A stretch of 43,639 bases of DNA from a virus (Duplodnaviria > Heunggongvirae > Uroviricota > Caudoviricetes). The first letter of the stretch is position 1; every line of letters begins with the position of its first letter. The notes under the pieces are model-generated. The model did no database searches. It worked only from the letters and a program-made list of their open reading frames with translations, and was not told where the DNA came from. Made by a program: the position numbers and the translations under genes. Below, piece by piece: positions 1-9,897 of the stretch. The stretch is from the IMG/VR virus record IMGVR_UViG_2617270952_000006; one strand, written 5' to 3'.

Positions 1-162
1 TGGCAACTGCAGTTCACTTACACCGCTTCTCAACCCGGTACGCACCAGAAAATCATTGATATGGCCATGAATGGCGTTGGATGCCGGGCAACTGCCCGCA
101 TTATGGGCGTTGGCCTCAACACGATTTTACGTCACTTAAAAAACTCAGGCCGCAGTCGGTAA
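1..162 (+). CDS. insA: IS1 InsA, 3' fragment (5' end outside window)
   Basis: Frame 1 from position 1 translates to the InsA C-terminal sequence ending [10 protein letters not shown] then TAA at 160-162. Confidence 0.7.
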
Positions 163-584
163 CCTCGCGCATACAGCCGGGCAGTGACGTCATCGTCTGC
201 GCGGAAATGGACGAACAGTGGGGCTATGTCGGGGCTAAATCGCGCCAGCGCTGGCTGTTTTACGCGTATGACAGTCTCCGGAAGACGGTTGTTGCGCACG
301 TATTCGGTGAACGCACTATGGCGACGCTGGGGCGTCTTATGAGCCTGCTGTCACCCTTTGACGTGGTGATATGGATGACGGATGGCTGGCCGCTGTATGA
401 ATCCCGCCTGAAGGGAAAGCTGCACGTAATCAGCAAGCGATATACGCAGCGAATTGAGCGGCATAACCTGAATCTGAGGCAGCACCTGGCACGGCTGGGA
501 CGGAAGTCGCTGTCGTTCTCAAAATCGGTGGAGCTGCATGACAAAGTCATCGGGTATTATCTGAACATAAAACACTATCAATAA
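81..584 (+). CDS. insB: IS1 transposase InsB reading frame (normally expressed as InsAB' fusion by -1 frameshift)
   Basis: ORF-track 167-aa product contains the InsB sequence (..[41 protein letters not shown]..). Confidence 0.8.
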
Positions 585-601
585 GTTGGAGTCATTACCA
601 G

Positions 602-715
602 CATTTTAAGGATCTCGAAGGTAAAATTGAAGAAAGGCTTCAAAATCGCCAGGCTGAATATCAAAATGAAATTAATCAACCATCTGCGCCAGGTGTTAAT
701 TTTGATGATATTTAA
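602..715 (+). pseudogene. 3' remnant of an ORF apparently truncated by the IS1 insertion
   Basis: Open frame begins directly at the IS1 end with no start codon or RBS and runs 38 codons to TAA at 713-715; a hairpin terminator follows. Confidence 0.35.
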
Positions 716-861
716 AATTATTTTTCCAGTTTTTTGATTTTTCAACAGCTGAATATCGGAAATAGTCAGTGACGAACATCAGTATTTTTACATAATTACG
801 TCTAGGTCATTGTCGGTTTATCTCCTTTTACTTGTGGTAATTGAGGGATAACAACAAAAAA

Positions 862-888
862 GGTGAGTTTTGCGACTCACCTTTTTTA
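862..888. terminator. Bidirectional rho-independent terminator between the truncated ORF and mlaA
   Basis: Perfect hairpin aggtgagt/actcacct (861-868 and 875-882) flanked by an A-run upstream and a T-run downstream. Confidence 0.55.
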
Positions 889-896
889 TTTGTTTC

Positions 897-1652
897 TTAT
901 TCAGAATCAATATCTTTTAAATCATCCTGAATCGCTTGTGCGTTCGGATTTTCCTGCGGTTTGAGTTCGCCGCCATTAGCGATGAAATCATGACGCTGGA
1001 AGTACGCTTCGCGCACCATAATATAAGGATCGGACGACTGACGCAGCAGACCATCGGAATCCAGCAGCTGAGCGCGGGTTTCGATCCCTTCAAGCGTCCA
1101 TTTACCCACAGACATCGGCCAGGTCAGCCAGGAAAGAACCGGGTAAAGACCATCCGCCATATCACCACCGTCATCACGCAGCGTGAAGCTACCGTAGAAC
1201 GGTAACTGAACGTAAGGCCCATAACCCACGCCATAATGACCAAGCGTACTACCGAAGCGGTGAGGTTCAGTCCGTTGCAGTTTCGGGTTCGCCATCCCTG
1301 CAACATCAATAAAACCGCCCATCCCCAAAATGGTGTTCAGGAAAAAGCGGGTAAAGTGGACCATCCCCTGATAAGGGTCGCCCTGCAAGAAGTAGTTAAC
1401 CATCACCGCAGGTTCTTCAAGGTTGCCAGTAAAGTTGCTCAAACCGTTACGCGCCGGTTGCGGAACATAATCACGCCAGGCGACAGCGACCGGTCGAACA
1501 ATATACGGGTCTAATACATTGAAGTTGAAGTTGTACATGGTGCGGTTGAACCCTTCTAACGGGTCAGAACGCCCTTGCTGATCTGTACCGGAACTCGCAC
1601 ACCCCACCAGAAGCGTAGTTCCCAGAGCAAGCGCCGACAGGCGAAGCTTCAT
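897..1652 (-). CDS. mlaA: MlaA (VacJ) outer-membrane lipoprotein, phospholipid asymmetry maintenance
   Basis: 251-aa product with lipoprotein signal (..LLVGCASSG) and sequence recognised as E. coli MlaA/VacJ; synteny with yfdC and argW as in E. coli K-12. Confidence 0.9.
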   Translation of the reverse strand: MKLRLSALALGTTLLVGCASSGTDQQGRSDPLEGFNRTMYNFNFNVLDPYIVRPVAVAWRDYVPQPARNGLSNFTGNLEEPAVMVNYFLQGDPYQGMVHFTRFFLNTILGMGGFIDVAGMANPKLQRTEPHRFGSTLGHYGVGYGPYVQLPFYGSFTLRDDGGDMADGLYPVLSWLTWPMSVGKWTLEGIETRAQLLDSDGLLRQSSDPYIMVREAYFQRHDFIANGGELKPQENPNAQAIQDDLKDIDSE

Positions 1653-1945
1653 AAATGTCTCCCTGTTTTTTTATGGCTTATGCAGTTTGCCATCCATGAC
1701 GGAACGATACCGTATCCGCCTGTTTAGGTGTGGGCGATTGTAACAGCACGTCAACTGATGTCCAGACGCCCTGATTTGCTGATTTGATCATAGCCTGGTA
1801 ATCGCCGCCCTGTAGGCTACTTGATTCTATAGAAACAGAAAAAGGCAAACGCAGCCTTTTCTACATTTTCAGAGTAACTCCCGTCAGTTGCGAGCAAAAA
1901 AGCCGCTACGCTTTAGCTATACGTGCTAATTCAAGAGAAGAGACC

Positions 1946-2878
1946 ATGGACAACGACAAAATTGATCAACACAGCGACGAAATTGAAGTTGAGAGCGAAG
2001 AAAAAGAGCGCGGCAAAAAAATAGAAATAGATGAAGACCGACTCCCCTCCCGGGCGATGGCAATTCATGAGCATATCCGCCAGGATGGTGAAAAAGAGCT
2101 GGAACGCGACGCAATGGCGCTACTGTGGTCAGCCATTGCGGCGGGGCTGTCGATGGGCGCTTCGTTACTGGCAAAAGGGATATTTCAAGTCGAACTGGAA
2201 GGTGTGCCGGGCAGCTTCTTGCTGGAGAATCTCGGTTATACCTTTGGTTTTATTATCGTCATTATGGCCCGCCAGCAATTATTTACCGAAAATACCGTGA
2301 CTGCGGTACTACCCGTCATGCAAAAACCGACAATGAGCAACGTCGGCTTACTTATACGGTTATGGGGCGTCGTGCTGCTGGGTAATATTCTCGGGACAGG
2401 TATTGCGGCGTGGGCATTTGAATATATGCCTATCTTCAATGAAGAAACTCGCGATGCATTTGTCAAAATCGGCATGGATGTGATGAAGAACACCCCCAGC
2501 GAGATGTTTGCCAACGCGATCATTTCCGGCTGGCTGATCGCCACTATGGTTTGGATGTTTCCTGCAGCGGGTGCGGCAAAGATTGTGGTGATTATATTGA
2601 TGACCTGGCTTATTGCCCTGGGTGACACCACCCATATCGTGGTCGGTTCTGTTGAAATCCTCTATCTGGTGTTTAACGGTACGCTGCACTGGAGCGATTT
2701 CATCTGGCCCTTCGCACTACCTACTTTAGCGGGGAACATCTGCGGCGGCACCTTTATCTTCGCGTTAATGAGTCATGCACAGATTCGTAACGACATGAGC
2801 AATAAGCGTAAAGCAGAAGCACGCCAAAAAGCAGAACGTGCGGAAAACATTAAGAAAAATTATAAAAACCCGGCATAA
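1946..2878 (+). CDS. yfdC: Formate/nitrite transporter family inner membrane protein YfdC
   Basis: 310-aa polytopic membrane protein; sequence and position between mlaA and argW match E. coli yfdC. Confidence 0.85.
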   Translation: MDNDKIDQHSDEIEVESEEKERGKKIEIDEDRLPSRAMAIHEHIRQDGEKELERDAMALLWSAIAAGLSMGASLLAKGIFQVELEGVPGSFLLENLGYTFGFIIVIMARQQLFTENTVTAVLPVMQKPTMSNVGLLIRLWGVVLLGNILGTGIAAWAFEYMPIFNEETRDAFVKIGMDVMKNTPSEMFANAIISGWLIATMVWMFPAAGAAKIVVIILMTWLIALGDTTHIVVGSVEILYLVFNGTLHWSDFIWPFALPTLAGNICGGTFIFALMSHAQIRNDMSNKRKAEARQKAERAENIKKNYKNPA

Positions 2879-2953
2879 ATGGCGAGGGTTTAAGCAATCG
2901 AGCGGCAGCGTACTTACCCCGCACTCCATTAGCGGGTATACTCATGCCGCATT

Positions 2954-3028
2954 GTCCTCTTAGTTAAATGGATATAACGAGCCCCTCCTAAGGGCTAATT
3001 GCAGGTTCGATTCCTGCAGGGGACACCA
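2954..3028 (+). tRNA. argW: tRNA-Arg (anticodon CCU)
   Basis: 75-nt sequence gtcctcttagttaaatggatataacgagcccctcctaagggctaattgcaggttcgattcctgcaggggacacca with anticodon loop ctCCTaa and 3' terminal CCA-like end; known integration site for Sf6/CUS-3/KplE1-type prophages. Confidence 0.9.
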
Positions 3029-3189
3029 TTTATCAGTTCGCTCCCATCCGTACCAGTCCGCAAAATCCCCTGAATATCAAGCCTTCCGTAGATTCACAGT
3101 TCGTAATGGTTCGCGTCAGATCGTTGACAGCCGCACTCCATGACGGGTAAAAAGTGGATAAAATAATTTTACCCACCGGATTTTTACCC

Positions 3190-4347
3190 ATGCTCACCGT
3201 TAAGCAGATTGAAGCAGCAAAGCCGAAAGAAAAACCATACCGCCTACTCGATGGTAATGGCCTGTACCTTTATGTCCCTGTGTCAGGGAAAAAGGTATGG
3301 CAGCTTCGCTACAAGATTGACGGTAAGGAGAAAATCCTGACCGTAGGAAAATATCCGCTAATGACTTTGCAGGAGGCAAGAGATAAAGCATGGACCGCGA
3401 GGAAAGACATCTCGGTTGGCATCGATCCGGTAAAAGCGAAAAAGGCTTCGTCTAACAACAATTCCTTTAGTGCAATTTACAAGGAATGGTACGAACACAA
3501 GAAGCAAGTCTGGTCAGTAGGGTATGCGACTGAACTTGCAAAAATGTTTGATGACGACATTTTACCCATCATCGGCGGTCTTGAGATTCAGGATATTGAG
3601 CCGATGCAACTGCTGGAAGTAATCCGCAGATTTGAAGATCGCGGTGCAATGGAGCGAGCCAACAAAGCCCGCAGAAGATGCGGCGAGGTTTTCCGTTACG
3701 CTATTGTCACTGGTAGGGCTAAATATAACCCGGCACCTGACCTTGCAGACGCCATGAAAGGATACCGCAAGAAGAACTTCCCGTTTCTTCCTGCAGACCA
3801 GATCCCTGCATTCAACAAAGCACTGGCAACATTTTCAGGAAGCATCGTATCGCTCATTGCGACCAAAGTTTTACGCTACACAGCCCTAAGAACGAAAGAG
3901 CTTCGTTCCATGCAATGGAAGAACGTCGATTTTGAAAACAGGATTATCACTATCGACGCCAGTGTGATGAAGGGCCGCAAGATTCATGTTGTTCCTATGT
4001 CAGACCAGGTGGTTGAACTTCTCACTACGCTAAGCTCCATCACTAAACCAGTATCAGAGTTTGTTTTTGCCGGGCGCAACGATAAGAAGAAGCCAATCTG
4101 CGAGAACGCGGTATTGCTTGTTATCAAACAAATCGGCTATGAGGGTCTGGAAAGCGGTCACGGATTCAGGCATGAATTCAGCACAATTATGAACGAGCAC
4201 GAATGGCCTGCTGACGCTATTGAAGTGCAACTGGCACATGCCAACGGCGGATCTGTGCGTGGAATTTACAACCATGCTCAGTATCTCGATAAGCGCAGAG
4301 AAATGATGCAGTGGTGGGCGGACTGGCTTGATGAAAAGGGGGAGTGA
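3190..4347 (+). CDS. intS: Tyrosine integrase, P4 family (IntS-like)
   Basis: 385-aa product from ATG 3190 (ORF track extends to 3154 from GTG); N-terminal arm-binding domain and C-terminal catalytic region (..HGFRHEF..LAHANG..RGIYNHAQY); immediately downstream of argW as in E. coli K-12 KplE1/CPS-53. Confidence 0.9.
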   Translation: MLTVKQIEAAKPKEKPYRLLDGNGLYLYVPVSGKKVWQLRYKIDGKEKILTVGKYPLMTLQEARDKAWTARKDISVGIDPVKAKKASSNNNSFSAIYKEWYEHKKQVWSVGYATELAKMFDDDILPIIGGLEIQDIEPMQLLEVIRRFEDRGAMERANKARRRCGEVFRYAIVTGRAKYNPAPDLADAMKGYRKKNFPFLPADQIPAFNKALATFSGSIVSLIATKVLRYTALRTKELRSMQWKNVDFENRIITIDASVMKGRKIHVVPMSDQVVELLTTLSSITKPVSEFVFAGRNDKKKPICENAVLLVIKQIGYEGLESGHGFRHEFSTIMNEHEWPADAIEVQLAHANGGSVRGIYNHAQYLDKRREMMQWWADWLDEKGE

Positions 4348-4438: not shown

Positions 4439-6451
4439 TCAAATCAGCCCATAAATAACATTATGCAAATGAAGAGAGCCTGCTTCACCGGAAACATCAA
4501 AATCAATCCTAACTTTGCTTGCTCCAGGAGGAACAATATCTATTAATGCGTAGAAATTCCATGTGGAGCCTGATGGAATTGTAAATGTTGCTTTTCCCTG
4601 AACAGAGTTCCCTTCTTTATCAAAAAACTCAATACCAGAGATTGTTGTCACTTGATTCTTAGCCCAAAAACCTAACTGGAAATATCGTCCTGGTGAGCAG
4701 TCTGAGCACTCCTGATAAAATTTTGCAGATGCTCCTATAGATGGTATTGCTACATACAAAGACCTGGAAAACATAATATCATTTGGAACATCAGAATCCG
4801 TTCCTGCTGTAACAACACCTGAACCAGTTTGTTGAAGGCTCCAGTTAGAGTAGTTTAAAAACTGTCCACTTCCATTTGATAGCGAATTTATGTATGGACT
4901 AACTATGTTCCCTTTATCCCACTGAGTTGTTATAAATCCAGATCGTGGATAGCATCCATATGACATTATTTTTTTACTATTACCTCCAACTACCTGTCTA
5001 GTTGCTGATCCTGTCGCCAAATCCATTTGGTCAAATAAAGGCAATGAGCAATTTGTTAATGAAAGTACTGAATCATCATTTACAACAAACGGAACTGAAC
5101 TATATCCAGAGGGAGTAAGTAGCGTTGTATCTTTAATGCTTATTCTTGTGCTTCCAGATGCAGAGAACGCCACAAAGCTTTGACCTGGCTGAAACTCAAT
5201 ATTTCCACTTGAGTAAACAACGGTTGCGTTATCTTCAATAAAAACAGTAGAATCAAAATAACCTTCTTTCTTACCTGCTGGCATAGAGCAACAGTTAAAA
5301 ATAAATTGACCATTTCTAATTGTCAATGGACCTCCATTATCAACAACCCAACAATTATTAAATGTCATTACCTCGCCTGAGTTTGATGGAGAATTAAATA
5401 TAATTGTGTTGTTTAGACATCTTGATATTGTTACTTTGTCAAATAAAATTCTATATGAATTATCAAGAAACTCAATTCCAGCAGATGATATGAATGAAGA
5501 ATTACTTATTCTTAACTCTGATAATTCACCAGTGCCAATACCTCCAAGTAAAATCTTTTTAGATCCTAGCATCTTAAAAGATATGCCATCTAAAATTGAT
5601 GTTGCATTTATTTCATCCCTATTATCATAAGAAATATTAGAGTTACTTAACCTAATTGCATAATCACCTGATATCCCATTAATCTCAGTTAAAACGCATT
5701 TATTCGATCCTCTTAACCCACCTTTCGCGAAATCAATATCAATTAAAGACGAGAATTCTCCACTACATGGAACAACGCAATCATAACCTAGAGAGTTTAT
5801 TTTATTAATAAATAATGCAATATCCCCAGCGCCGCTGTAACCAGCGTCATATACAGAAAACTCAAGGCTTGGGTTTATTCTCTTCCAATTTACACCGTTA
5901 CCTTCTAAAACCATTACGTTATCAACTGCAATTGACTTGTCTACAGCTACAACAAACCCACCACCAAGTTCGAGTCCGGATACGTATGATTTTAAATATA
6001 ATTTATCAGATATCGACATTCCTTGTATATCTTTAAGGGAGTTAGCGCTCTCTACCATTCCAATGTATTTGTATCCAATATTACTTGATAGTTTTATAGA
6101 TAACTGATCAGGATCATACTTCAGCACATTAGGAAAATAGAACTGCTGCGCACCGTACGCATCATAAACAGCCATAGAATGGCCTTGCACGGTTACGAAT
6201 TTGGCAATCTGTCCGTTATATACCGGGTAACCAGCAGCGTTAATGATGATTGGTTGCGATACAGGAACGTGAGAACCGTCTTCGTTCTCTACATAAACCT
6301 GAATCTGGTTTTCAGGATTTACCGGGTCAGTGTCAATTTTTCCGATATAAATTTTGCCATTGGCATTTGCTTTAAACGAGCGAGCTAAAGTAAATAACTG
6401 ACTTGGTTGTGAAACAACAACGTTGTATAATTGTTCTGGCATAATAAACAT
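4439..6451 (-). CDS. Tailspike protein: P22 gp9-like N-terminal head-binding domain fused to a distinct beta-helix receptor-binding/depolymerase domain
   Basis: N-terminal ~110 aa align with P22 tailspike (..NVVVS.P...F...[34 protein letters not shown]....P.IINAAG...YNGQ......VQGHSMA.YDA.G.Q......NVLKYDPDQ); remainder is N/S/G-rich repeat-like sequence typical of parallel beta-helix; visibly A+T-rich. Confidence 0.85.
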
Positions 6452-6464
6452 TCCGGAGAAAATA

Positions 6465-6965
6465 ATGAGTAAGAGACGTCACGAGGTAGTAACTCGGGAG
6501 CGCCTTATGGAGGTTCTCGATTACAATAAAGAAACAGGAATTTTCACTTGGAAAAAGAAATTAAGCGCCAGAGGTGCTGTTGGGAAAGTTGCTGGCACAA
6601 TTTCTTATGGATATAACGCAATTAATATTGATGGCGTAAGATATTTTGCACATAGACTTGCCTGGCTGTATGTATATGGCGAATGGCCCAAACAAGAGAT
6701 TGACCACATTGATAGAAACAGAAGAAATAACGCAATCTCAAACCTTAGGGATGTCAGCAGAGTCGTAAATGCATTAAATGTCGGACCTCGAAATAGCAAT
6801 GCTGGAATCAAGGGGGTAACTTTCTGTCAAGCCAGAAATCAATGGCAAGCTCAGATAAATGTCTCAGGTAAAAACATAACCCTTGGGAGATTCAACACCA
6901 TTGATGAAGCGGCTATAGCTTATAAGGCAGCAAACATGGTTGCTGACCATCTGTTGAGTAGGTAA
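6465..6965 (+). CDS. HNH endonuclease with C-terminal AP2-like DNA-binding domain (free-standing homing-endonuclease type)
   Basis: Motifs ..[17 protein letters not shown].. (HNH) and ..[40 protein letters not shown].. (AP2-like); ATG 6465 preceded by GGAG RBS; A+T-rich; opposite strand to flanking late genes. Confidence 0.7.
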
Positions 6966-7032
6966 TGTCTGTCATTTAATTTGCTCCAGATGCAAGGAAT
7001 CGCCGCAGCATGGCTACGGTGAATTTTGGGCA

Positions 7033-7056
7033 TAAAAAAACCCAGCCGAAGCTGGG
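7033..7056 (-). terminator. Rho-independent terminator downstream of ant
   Basis: Hairpin cccagc-cgaa-gctggg with a 7-nt T-run on the minus strand immediately 3' of it. Confidence 0.5.
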
Positions 7057-7075
7057 TCGTTGCGTTGGTTATCTG

Positions 7076-8011
7076 TCAGTAGTTATGTACTGAAGGAGGT
7101 AATTCTTTATTCTTAAGTCTCATCCATGCGGAAAGATTCGTTGGTCCGTCTGGCTCATTAATATCAACATCTCGTGTGCGATTGATTAAAACGTCTCTCG
7201 CCATTCCGATAACATACGAGAACTCATGACCGTAGTCGTAGCATCTGCCTGAATAGTTCGATTGAATTTGTTTTAGCGCCGGATACAGTTCGCGGAATAA
7301 TGCCTGTGAGCGGTTGGCATAATCCCATAACCATACAAGGCTGTTTACTTCTTTTGCAGAAAGCTCGTTGGTTTTCTTCTCTTGTTTGCCAATGAACTCA
7401 CCTTCAAGTGGAACTCGAGCTGCAAGTGATAGTGCTTCGGTAAACTGCTCCTCACTGATTTCTTTGTATGAACATCCAAAATGGGATTTCAGTGACGACC
7501 ACATGGTGATCATCGCCTTAGCCTGTTTTTCCTTTGGCAGAGACTGACCGCGACTCATGACGAGTTGTTTAATGGCTTCCTGCTGTTCAGTGGTGATTTT
7601 ACCCGGCAACGCCTTTTTAGCTTTGCGCGGGTTAACTACATGGCCTTTAGTCCAGTAGTCATGCAGCACGCTAAAGCATTCCTCCTGGTACTGAATCAGT
7701 TTATCGCGGATGTCAGCACGAACTTTCTCAGGGTTGATGCTGAACAGCCATCCATTTAACTTCTTCAAAGGAAGGCAGAGTAGCTTACGAAGCTTTCCAT
7801 CAGCAGCAACCATATTCATATGAATACATTTGAACTTATCTAGTTGTTTCATAAGTTTTTGTTGCTGAGTACCCCAGCTCATTCCGAGGTTTTCAACGAT
7901 TGGCTTCATCGCAACATATGCAACTCCGGCAGCCATGGCGGTGATAATTTGCTGACCGTTGAATGGTACGTAAGAGGTGTTCACTGCTTCTAAAATTGCT
8001 ATACTATTCAT
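7076..8011 (-). CDS. ant: Antirepressor Ant (P22 immI-type)
   Basis: Large ORF immediately downstream of arc on the same strand; start taken at ATG 8011 ([17 protein letters not shown]..); ORF track extends to a GTG at 8077 that overlaps the upstream ORF. Confidence 0.7.
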
Positions 8012-8073
8012 GTTGGTTTTTCTCCACGGATTTACTGACAACCGAAGCCCTGACTGTTCCCGCAGTTGGGGCT

Positions 8074-8256
8074 TCACTGTTTTATGTTCACATCTAACAT
8101 TGTTTTTCTAGAATTTAACTCTTTCCCCATCGCTTCAACGCAAAGAGATACACAACTACTACAGATAAATATCTCTGCTTTAGCGCGAATCAACATTGCA
8201 CATTCATGCTGAGGCTTTCCGCAGAAGGAGCACTTAAAGCCATCTTCTTTATTCAT
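8074..8256 (-). CDS. 60-aa protein with ClpX-type C4 zinc-ribbon (ZBD-like) motif
   Basis: [43 protein letters not shown].. parallels the ClpX N-terminal zinc-binding domain (CSFCGK.QHE..LI......IC..CV.LC); start ATG overlaps arc stop (ATGA); preceded by GGGGGTGG RBS. Confidence 0.6.
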
Positions 8257-8519: not shown

Positions 8520-8768
8520 ATGGCAAAGGGTGTGTCAATTTCTCCAACTACGGTAAGAATCCCTGAATCTTTACGCGAGGCTCTTGCTGTTAGAGCATCA
8601 AAAAATGGTCGCTCTGTTAACTCCGAGATCGTCATGATTTTGCAAGCCGCGATTGATGAAGATAGGTCGCCAAAGTCAGTTGAGTCATTTGCTCAGCAAG
8701 AAGCTGACAAATTCAAAGAGGCGCTGCTGGAGACGCTGAAAACCATGTATGGTAAGGATGATAAATAA
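8520..8768 (+). CDS. mnt: Mnt-like ribbon-helix-helix repressor
   Basis: 82-aa product with N-terminal RHH (..RIPESLREALAVRASKNGRSVNSEIV..) and C-terminal helical region, divergent from arc as in P22 immI. Confidence 0.75.
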   Translation: MAKGVSISPTTVRIPESLREALAVRASKNGRSVNSEIVMILQAAIDEDRSPKSVESFAQQEADKFKEALLETLKTMYGKDDK

Positions 8769-9304
8769 TGCTGCACACAATTCATTTCTTATGCCCCGTT
8801 AACACCGCCACTGTTGGGCAACTTCAGAACCACTGTCTCACCGCATTATCTCAAGGCGCAACTGAATTAAATATCCATATATCAAGTCAGGGAGGGGAAA
8901 CTGCCGCTGGTTTTACTGCGTATAACTTTCTTAAGTCACTCCCTGTTACCGTTAGAACTCACAACATAAGCAATGTTGAATCCATAGCTAATATCGTTTT
9001 CCTGGCTGGCTCAGAACGTTTCGCAAACCCATTATCAAGATTCCTGTTACATCCTCTATTATGGGGCTTTGCCTCCCCAGCCGCCGACCATGCCAGACTG
9101 AGAGAGTACGGGAAATGCCTCGATAACGATCTTGATCGCTTCGTTGAGACGTTCAATATCGACATCGGAACCCATATTAGGTGGGCATCCCTGATAGCAG
9201 ACTCGACCATTTTGGATGCTAACAAGGCTCTTGAGCATGGCATAATTAATTCCATAAAAACTGCAAGGCTGGCATCCAATCAGGCAAACTGGTGGGTTGT
9301 TTGA
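8768..9304 (+). CDS. ClpP-family (peptidase S14-like) serine peptidase homolog
   Basis: By-eye alignment to E. coli ClpP: IHISSQGGETAAG vs INSPGGVITAG; NVESIANIVFLAGSERFANPLSRFLLHPL vs [31 protein letters not shown] (candidate Ser and His aligned); start ATG overlaps mnt stop (TAATG). Confidence 0.65.
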   Translation: MLHTIHFLCPVNTATVGQLQNHCLTALSQGATELNIHISSQGGETAAGFTAYNFLKSLPVTVRTHNISNVESIANIVFLAGSERFANPLSRFLLHPLLWGFASPAADHARLREYGKCLDNDLDRFVETFNIDIGTHIRWASLIADSTILDANKALEHGIINSIKTARLASNQANWWVV

Positions 9305-9360: not shown

Positions 9361-9780
9361 TTAATCTTGCTTCGTGGAAGGTATAAGAGATGCATTTGCC
9401 TCTTTTGGCTTCAATGTATACATCCCACCATTAAATGGATCAACAGCAAGCCAACCAATTAACCCACCAAACACAAGGTTTCCACCAATATACCAACCAT
9501 TAGCATTGGCTTTGATTGGCAGGGTAACTGGTTCGTACCCATCCTTCTCCATAGTGATCTGGTAGCTCTTTTTGCCAAAATAGCTACCATCTGACTTGGC
9601 GAGTGTTACACCTTGTGGAGTCTTACCTTGCGCAACAATCACACCCGATTCATCTTTTACCTTAAAGCTCGCGCCAGAAGGATTGCTGTTCACTTGCACA
9701 AGTTGCGTTTCATCACCAACAATAGTTGCGCACCCAGATAACATGATAACGCCAGCAACGACGCTAATAATCCTCTTCAT
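9361..9780 (-). CDS. Lipoprotein with PEGA-like domain and C-terminal glycine-zipper hydrophobic segment
   Basis: Signal peptide with lipobox (MKRIISVVAGVIMLSGC); PEGA-like stretch (..VQVNSNPSGASFKV..GKTPQGVTL..DGYEP..); C-terminal ..WYIGGNLVFGGLIGWLAV..; A+T-rich. Confidence 0.55.
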   Translation of the reverse strand: MKRIISVVAGVIMLSGCATIVGDETQLVQVNSNPSGASFKVKDESGVIVAQGKTPQGVTLAKSDGSYFGKKSYQITMEKDGYEPVTLPIKANANGWYIGGNLVFGGLIGWLAVDPFNGGMYTLKPKEANASLIPSTKQD

Positions 9781-9897
9781 ATCAATTTCCATATTTAAAA
9801 AACCGGAAACATCCTAATGACAAAACATTCAAATGTGAAGTAGGCAAAAGATGTTTACTTTTTTCATGGTATCCTGCTCAAAACTAAGGAGGTTGGT

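Follow-up and report, generated by a model that had tools for sequence, protein, structure and literature searches.

Introduction

In T-even phages, the homing endonuclease genes (HEGs) of the seg and mob groups are free-standing, lie between conserved genes or at their ends, occur sporadically, and encode enzymes that cut the HEG-less allele nearby, while the HEG-bearing genome is protected by polymorphism of its target and the flanking markers are co-converted. The seg enzymes are of the GIY-YIG type and the mob enzymes are HNH proteins without an AP2 domain, and both groups belong to lytic phages. I-HmuI, an HNH homing enzyme of Bacillus phage SPO1, nicks one strand. An HNH nuclease followed by a C-terminal AP2 domain is also a described homing endonuclease architecture (Magnani et al. 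2004, as cited in PMC10448857), and genes for such nucleases are reported to sit at genetic-exchange boundaries (Barth et al., PMC10448857). Thousands of HNH-AP2 homologues, at 40–50% identity to the protein considered here, occur in T5-like, T4-like, Felix-like and many other phages. Here we analyze one such gene in a stretch of 43,639 nucleotides (nt) of Caudoviricetes DNA (IMG/VR record IMGVR_UViG_2617270952_000006; the whole stretch is called the window below), namely an HNH-AP2 open reading frame (ORF) at 6465–6965 on the plus strand of a P22-like (Lederbergvirus-type) prophage, beside the start of the tailspike gene.

We propose that this gene is an active, free-standing homing endonuclease gene of the HNH_3-AP2 type that targets the conserved 5′ end of P22-type tailspike genes, and we give this proposal a probability of about 0.6. 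It is based on an intact nuclease of a homing family, on a fixed site with sporadic occupancy, and on near-identical copies in divergent backgrounds, and also on a divergent sequence patch lying exactly at the expected target and on the reuse of the same site by another gene of this kind. Both the GenBank entry of phage Kapi1 and RefSeq E. coli genomes already list the gene as an “HNH endonuclease”, and the Kapi1 papers make no mention of it. Our literature search found no description of a clade specific to the tailspike start, nor of the vestigial start and the recoded codons seen here; the papers found on homing endonucleases of P22-like phages concern other sites, that is, gene 31 of epsilon34 and, in SEN22, the interval between the terminase and portal genes.

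A 600-nt cassette within the tailspike 5′ end

The HNH ORF starts with the ATG at 6465 and ends with the TAA at 6963–6965, and its product of 166 amino acids is 100% identical to Kapi1_066. It runs opposite to the late and virion genes, to ant (7076–8077; P22_AR_N/C) and to the tailspike gene (4439–6442), all of which are on the minus strand. The tailspike is of the P22 type (Pfam Head_binding, E 2e-64), with its head-binding domain extending to about 6098 and its distal receptor domain at 4439–6097. An earlier note on this DNA had described a free-standing HNH nuclease, antisense to the late genes and divergent from the tailspike, and both its coordinates and its description agree with the ORF, Pfam and PHROG matches obtained here. 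The gap of about 14 bp that it gave between the two start codons holds for an extra in-frame tailspike ATG at 6451 (13 nt), and does not hold for the ATG at 6442 (22 nt), which is the one that aligns with the canonical tailspike start and that is annotated as the start in Kapi1. The surroundings, called A+T-rich in the same note, are only mildly so, with a GC content of 0.413 for the HNH gene, 0.424 for the head-binding part next to it, 0.353 for the distal part of the tailspike and 0.444 for ant, against 0.467 for the whole window. The note also took this stretch to be contiguous with the receptor module; the HNH gene adjoins the conserved head-binding module instead, and the receptor module starts about 345 nt away.

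The boundaries of the insertion were established by alignment with the HNH-less phages CUS-3, epsilon34 and N7, together with a codon-by-codon comparison. The inserted piece is a cassette of 600 nt (6362–6961) that replaces nt 15–81 (67 nt) of the canonical tailspike gene, so that the distance from the ribosome-binding site (RBS) to the downstream anchor is 626 nt with the cassette versus 93 nt in HNH-less genomes. It contains the HNH gene, the divergent spacer of 22 nt and a replacement for tailspike codons 1–27. The insertion between ant and the tailspike that the earlier note had supposed is therefore real, and yet it is not simply intergenic, as the insert lies within the tailspike 5′ end itself. 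The note had overlooked two components of this arrangement, the replacement codons and the RBS and start codon left behind on the other side of the HNH gene.

The canonical HNH-less tailspike start reads GGAGCAAATTAA-ATG ACA GAC ATT ACA GCC. An identical copy of this start is preserved as a vestige at 6962–6987 on the minus strand, comprising the RBS GGAGC (6983–6987), the ATG (6973–6975) and the next 11 nt, and the last HNH codon and stop (AGG TAA, 6960–6965) overlap it. The working tailspike start, at 6442, lies 533 nt beyond the vestigial one and has different first codons. Every lineage of the clade keeps such a vestige under the HNH stop, made up of GGAG, 6–9 nt, an ATG and 3–7 tailspike codons. 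In the window the vestigial ATG opens an ORF of 20 codons whose product is not conserved; a conserved small protein was considered and rejected, since the corresponding upstream ORFs, of 8–48 amino acids, share only their first 3–5 residues.

The replacement, or recoded, tailspike codons 1–27 (6362–6442, minus strand) travel with the HNH gene. Compared with the canonical sequence MTDITANVIVSMPSQLFTMARSFKAVA, this patch has 5 of its 27 codons identical, 13 with synonymous differences and 9 with residue changes, and ordinary E. coli-type tailspike sequence resumes at codon 28 (AAT GGC AAA, from 6361 downward). The patch resembles the natural tailspike N-terminus (MPEQ[LS]YNVVVSQPS) of two other lineages in our set, L018 and L021, whose HNH proteins are about 80–81% identical to that of the window and in which the divergence from the E. 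coli type continues downstream of the patch region. From this resemblance, the E. coli cassette probably derives from an unsampled relative of the L018 and L021 lineages.

Protein domains and catalytic residues

The protein is an ordinary member of a well-known family. Its HNH_3 core (residues 60–103; 6642–6773, plus strand), a His-Me finger of the I-HmuI kind, is supported by Pfam (PF13392, E 2.1e-16, 59.7 bits against a cut-off of 24.8), by phmmer and by Foldseek, and the whole protein matches PHROG 99 “HNH endonuclease” with an E-value of 7e-63, while the NCBIfam search assigned it to no family. Phmmer aligns residues 57–126 with I-HmuI (1U3E), pairing the DH..NN..N..N residues of both at an E-value of 0.07. 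In alignments of 20 and 36 homologues, D80, H81, N89, N93 and N105 are invariant and N102 is at least 90% conserved; D80-H81, N89 and N93 fall inside the HNH_3 span, and N102 and N105 at its end or just beyond it (6768–6782). Loss of catalytic HNH residues had been named in the earlier note as an outcome that would speak against its reading, and all six residues are retained on alignment.

The second domain, of the AP2 DNA-binding type (residues 114–156; 6804–6932, plus strand), was recognized from a Pfam match (PF00847, E 3.6e-6) of 27.6 bits, which is below the gathering score of 33.3, and from structure prediction, with precomputed PF00847 matches also present on many homologues. An AlphaFold model built from the 36-sequence alignment (mean pLDDT 87.6) gives, in the nuclease part, strands 78–81 and 94–97 and helix 99–104, that is, a β-β-α fold, and in the AP2 part strands 118–121, 126–133 and 136–143 with helix 146–165, that is, a three-stranded sheet plus a helix. 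The top Foldseek match of the model is 1u3e (I-HmuI), with probability 1.00, an E-value of 2e-3 and 25% identity over 96 columns, covering the N-terminal two-thirds of the protein. Residues 114–166 superpose on the AP2 domain of TEM1 (7et5) with a root-mean-square deviation (rmsd) of 1.5 Å over 42 columns and probability 1.00, and the AP2 region on AtERF1 (1gcc) with an rmsd of 1.4 Å over 51 columns (TMt 0.68). All these Foldseek E-values (2e-3 to 9e-2) are modest, and yet they agree with the sequence evidence. The HNH-AP2 architecture noticed earlier is supported.

One alternative that bears on these domains is that of a domesticated AP2 regulator close to the tailspike/ant junction, acting on the tailspike or ant as a transcription factor or as an element of antisense transcription, with the nuclease inactive or irrelevant. 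AP2 domains did turn into transcription factors in plants and apicomplexans, and since the HNH gene converges on ant and runs antisense to the late transcript, its transcription alone could interfere with both. We consider this very improbable, because the invariance of D80, H81, N89, N93 and N105, together with the conservation of N102, would be unexpected for a dispensable nuclease, and about 98% of the related phages do without the HNH gene.

A fixed site, purifying selection and a second occupant

Orthologues that are 76–84% identical were found in prophages of Salmonella, Citrobacter, a genome annotated as Mixta calida and Escherichia sp. ESNIH1, and in unassigned metagenome contigs; this taxonomic breadth comes from protein-encoding contigs and IMG/VR, a scan of contigs by exact peptide words having given two loci. 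In all of the roughly 47 sampled loci whose HNH protein is at least 76% identical, the gene lies 22–45 nt from a Head_binding tailspike and divergent from it, and homologues of 47% identity or less sit elsewhere. Between lineages, synonymous divergence (pS) is 0.68–0.92 and nonsynonymous divergence (pN) 0.10–0.19, with dN/dS at 0.04–0.07 where it could be computed, which indicates that the HNH protein is under strong purifying selection. Given these orthologues in several genera, with saturated synonymous sites and a dN/dS of 0.07 or less, the comparison indicates that the ORF is a real gene and not a chance ORF. Damaged copies also exist: the one in contig L052 is frameshifted, and that of 30COLEC has its 3′ end replaced. 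As for the start codon, RefSeq PGAP places it at the internal Met15 (window position 6507, giving 459 nt) in all the E. coli genomes examined, and the Kapi1 annotation uses the long form of 501 nt; we favor the long form, starting at 6465, because residues 6–14 (HEVLTRERL) are conserved across lineages saturated at synonymous sites and because a GGAG precedes it.

Of 5426 complete E. coli genomes, 832 have this tailspike 5′ end and only 15 contain the cassette, at 98.6–100% identity; the HNH gene is absent from CUS-3, epsilon34 and N7. Kapi1 is the sole phage isolate with the gene, since the remaining 3208 phage records with a homologue are all below 60% identity. The earlier note had also named constant presence at this position in all relatives as evidence against an insertion; given that the catalytic residues are conserved and that the gene is an insertion polymorphism, occupying 15 of 832 E. 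coli loci, neither of its two counter-indications applies. Among 80 sampled IMG/VR tailspike loci, the recoded patch was found in 5 of 5 with the HNH gene and in none of the 75 without it, and in E. coli the full patch of 27 codons is confined to exactly the 15 HNH-bearing genomes. Two partial cases exist besides: E. coli GF43 (contig L137, 1470–1700) is an HNH-less chimera in which the canonical RBS and HK620-type codons 1–8 are fused to patch codons 9–27, which would make it a useful natural substrate for mapping the target of the nuclease, and strains MLI104K1 and MLI104K2 have a remnant of the patch truncated by IS1.

The same junction has a second occupant. An unrelated HNH-AP2 protein (WP_001104356.1), with 34% amino acid identity to the first, occupies exactly this position in E. 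coli GDSC2227PM (contig L010, 3735–4244), and its gene was found in 15 complete E. coli genomes (GDSC2227PM and 14 others) and in two IMG/VR contigs, L108 and L133, and was absent among the phage isolates searched. It is joined to the same vestigial tailspike start of 18 nt, ATGACAGACATTACCTAC, it has a TATAAT of its own, and the working tailspike start beside it is of the HK620 type (MTDSINAN). Taken together, the two HNH-AP2 lineages occupy about 30 of the 832 eligible E. coli loci, and the presence of this second, unrelated gene in 15 more E. coli genomes makes the junction a recurrent landing pad. We also observed two HNH-less loci with HK620-type starts in IMG/VR (L063 and L069), whose RBS, GGAGCAAATTAAAATG, about 16 nt upstream of the tailspike ATG, looks like a hybrid of the two RBSs of the second cassette, GGAGCAAATTAAATG (vestigial) and GAGAAATTAAAATG (working); speculatively, this hybrid may be the scar of an HNH loss through recombination between the two direct repeats.

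Mosaic backgrounds of the cassette

To what the cassette is linked was examined in 28 E. coli-type loci with HNH genes at least 99% identical, made up of the window, Kapi1, 5 RefSeq genomes and 21 IMG/VR contigs. These loci have 20 different clusters of distal tailspike domains, and their right-hand neighbors also vary, from ant to an Arc/Mnt-family gene only, the ejection-protein genes directly (with no immI region) or an unrelated element. Nucleotide diversity is 0–0.01 in the cassette, 0.04–0.15 in the head-binding region and above 0.5 past the domain junction. The divergence between HNH-bearing and HNH-less tailspikes is 0.32–0.53 within codons 1–27 and falls to 0.03 immediately after, from nt 82 onward, where divergence between the groups equals that within them (0.03–0.10), and at nt 82–250 no site differs in frequency between the groups by more than 0.3. 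From codon 28 on, the tailspikes of the two groups are thus indistinguishable. A co-conversion gradient, with diversity among HNH-bearing loci rising away from the cassette, was considered and rejected, because the 75 HNH-less loci show the same profile; together with the equality of between-group and within-group divergence from nt 82, this means that there is no detectable hitch-hiking.

The cassette is therefore a sharply bounded, near-invariant block in backgrounds fully mixed with the general population, a pattern that fits a mobile cassette with crossovers near its edges. It leaves unsupported the suggestion of the earlier note that the nuclease drives exchange of the host-range-determining distal domain of the tailspike, given that the linkage stops at codon 27/28 and that 20 distal types are found: whether by moving itself or through recombination around it, the cassette changes backgrounds without the distal domain, which is 345 nt away. 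The comparative data limit the original idea in this sense, that the cassette does not bring the receptor-binding domain along.

The same mixing of the flanks with the general population is what would be seen if the HNH gene were a passive passenger, sitting between the head-binding domain and the terminator/RBS region of ant and shuffled by ordinary homologous recombination, with the 27 codons as a remnant of the donor allele. The likeness of the patch to the natural L018/L021 N-terminus, the single left boundary in all E. coli copies and the HNH-less GF43 chimera bearing patch codons 9–27 agree with such a history. Passive carriage leaves unexplained, on the other hand, the strong purifying selection on the catalytic residues and the whole protein in every lineage, the presence of two unrelated HNH-AP2 genes at the same nucleotide junction, and the exact position kept by every member of the clade, and we therefore regard it as improbable.

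A putative promoter and translation signals

By eye, a putative σ70 promoter of the HNH gene can be read at 6403–6431 on the plus strand, with TTGGTT at 6403–6408, a spacer of 17 nt and TATAAT at 6426–6431. It lies antisense within tailspike codons 4–14, the TATAAT being opposite codons 4–6. In 8 of 9 sampled copies of the clade, which represent fewer independent lineages, a TATAAT or TATGAT precedes the HNH ATG by about 33 nt; the exception is the Mixta copy (L015), which has GATATT instead, and the unrelated second HNH gene has its TATAAT at an equal distance from its ATG. We read the conserved TATAAT as the probable −10 box of the HNH promoter because it is kept while neutral sites are saturated between lineages, and a −10 box embedded in this way would account for the HNH gene and the first tailspike codons being carried together. 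The Shine-Dalgarno sequence, GGAG at 6455–6458 (plus strand), is part of a CCGGAG conserved in most lineages, and the weak GGA that precedes the tailspike start, on the opposite strand, shares its TCCGGA core.

The conserved TATAAT and the purifying selection also speak for a second alternative, in which the nuclease is kept for the benefit of the phage: expressed from the prophage, it would cut the tailspike 5′ end of superinfecting or co-infecting relatives that do not have the recoded allele, lowering their yield, and its spread would be a by-product. Partial marker exclusion by the seg and mob endonucleases of T4 and by the intron HNH enzymes of SPO1 and SP82 would be comparable. A dN/dS of 0.07 or less with saturated synonymous sites, a position strictly kept across genera, a conserved TATAAT of its own, an orientation against the late operon, which is usual for accessory genes expressed from prophages, and the location in the immI/tailspike accessory region all agree with this role; a weaker point is that the Kapi1 genes reported to be undetected in lysogen RNA-seq do not include Kapi1_066, a gene that goes unnamed there. 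If exclusion were useful to the phage, more than about 2% of the prophages would be expected to have the gene, and the alternative depends on the same presumed cleavage as the homing proposal, with which it is not mutually exclusive. We find it unlikely, and we keep homing as the preferred explanation.

A proposed homing mechanism

The proposed sequence of events would take place during co-infection, or when an HNH-less P22-like phage superinfects a lysogen. A dedicated promoter, lying antisense within the first tailspike codons, would drive transcription of the HNH gene, and the AP2 domain, together with the β-rich N-terminal region, would place the His-Me finger of the enzyme on the canonical tailspike 5′ end of the HNH-less genome, which would be nicked or cut there. 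Repair templated by the HNH-bearing genome would then transfer the cassette of 600 nt to the broken one, with crossovers in the immediate vicinity of the cassette edges. Two features would protect the HNH-bearing genome itself: one copy of the site is interrupted by the insertion after nt 14, at the vestigial start, and the working codons 1–27 come from a very divergent tailspike allele unlike the target. The differences from the canonical allele at 22 of these 27 codons, and the split of the other start copy after nt 14, are consistent with such protection. Kapi1, which has an identical cassette, is described as a viable, plaque-forming phage (PMC8787464), and therefore the arrangement is compatible with production of the tailspike.

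We suggest keeping in mind several points that weigh against this proposal. Our literature search found no report of cleavage activity, target site or biased inheritance for any member of the clade, the AP2 match is under the Pfam gathering threshold, and a consensus promoter scan requiring 4 of 6 matches per hexamer found no plus-strand promoter upstream of the HNH gene. The gene occupies only about 2% of the eligible E. coli prophages, unexpectedly low for an efficient drive; co-infection opportunities among temperate phages may be few, which could be a reason for this low frequency. Purifying selection maintained across genera exceeds what the classical sequence of invasion, decay and loss predicts, and could mean that the gene has another benefit for the phage. 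The mosaic could be the product of ordinary homologous recombination, because the flanks are among the most conserved stretches of P22-like phages, and the one left boundary shared by all E. coli copies suggests a single entry followed by spread, not repeated conversions with variable tracts. It is the frequency of about 2%, this single left boundary and the unusually strong long-term purifying selection that hold our confidence near 0.6.

A broader scenario, to which we give only tentative credit and which we think more doubtful than probable, is that two or more unrelated HNH-AP2 nucleases compete for the tailspike start as a landing site. The prophage-expressed enzyme would cut the conserved tailspike 5′ end of incoming HNH-less relatives and so serve both as a gene drive and as an exclusion weapon directed at an essential, highly conserved virion gene, and each cassette would carry a promoter in its replacement codons, an immunizing recoded N-terminus and a decoy RBS and start.

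If the nuclease is active, intronless homing could be studied in temperate enterobacterial phages in a simple and tractable system, with a cultivable phage, Kapi1, and many natural HNH-less targets, in a field where work on phage homing has dealt almost entirely with lytic phages of the T4, T5, SPO1 and ICP1 types. It would then target the stretch of the tailspike gene that is most conserved, and host range is set at the opposite end of that gene. An active enzyme could influence recombination and exclusion among phages of E. coli, Shigella and Salmonella, and might be of use as a natural sequence-specific nuclease for the tailspike-start junction.

Neighboring genes of the prophage

About 75 nt downstream of the HNH stop lies the intrinsic terminator that follows ant (7039–7058, minus strand), formed by GACCCAGC-TTCG-GCTGGGTT and a T run; a terminator is annotated at the same place in epsilon34, and it is conserved in HNH-less phages. 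In the immI region, an ORF of 60 amino acids at 8074–8256 (minus strand), with a ClpX-type C4 zinc finger, lies between an arc-like gene and ant, and an ORF for a ClpP-like protease at 8768–9304 (plus strand) directly follows an mnt-like ribbon-helix-helix gene; neither has a counterpart in the compared regions of Kapi1, CUS-3, epsilon34 and N7. A further ORF, at 9361–9792 (minus strand), encodes 143 amino acids with a lipoprotein-like N-terminus and a weak match to PEGA (E 0.004, below threshold), and its location, with the immI region on one side and the ejection-protein genes on the other, suggests a possible role in lysogenic conversion or exclusion.

The host flank in the window (81–4347) contains an IS1 transposase, mlaA and a yfdC-like transporter, followed by an IntS-type integrase. 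Kapi1 is described as integrating at the tRNA gene argW (PMC8787464), and intS is also carried by the HNH-bearing prophages of Combat2C1, VE-T9 and GF66.2; on this account, the prophage of the window may share the attachment site of Kapi1.

Comparison with known systems

The small HNH proteins of the HK97 gp74 type belong to cos phages, where their genes adjoin those of the terminase and the proteins assist cos cleavage, and P22-like phages package their DNA by a headful mechanism. A terminase-associated role of this type was rejected for the present gene on its position and sporadic distribution: it lies about 16 kb from the presumed terminase genes (22.7–24.5 kb, assigned by position only). 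In contrast to the gp74 type, it lies at the far end of the late operon, belongs to the HNH_3 family and is missing from about 98% of the relatives.

I-HmuI of SPO1 (1U3E) is likewise phage-borne and has the same nuclease core, with an N-terminal β-rich region followed by a His-Me finger with the DH...N...N residues; its gene lies in a group I intron and its C-terminal DNA-binding domain is a helix-turn-helix, whereas the present enzyme is free-standing and ends in an AP2 domain. The HNH-AP2 family includes the “IPA-HNH” proteins of phage ICP1 (Barth et al. 2023, PMC10448857), with the same domain order, a size of about 160–180 amino acids and free-standing genes in phages. The clade described here differs from them in keeping to one site in temperate P22-like prophages and in matching HNH_3 of Pfam, which the ICP1 IPA-HNH genes do not. 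Finally, the T-even HEGs co-convert their flanking markers, whereas here co-conversion beyond the cassette is undetectable.

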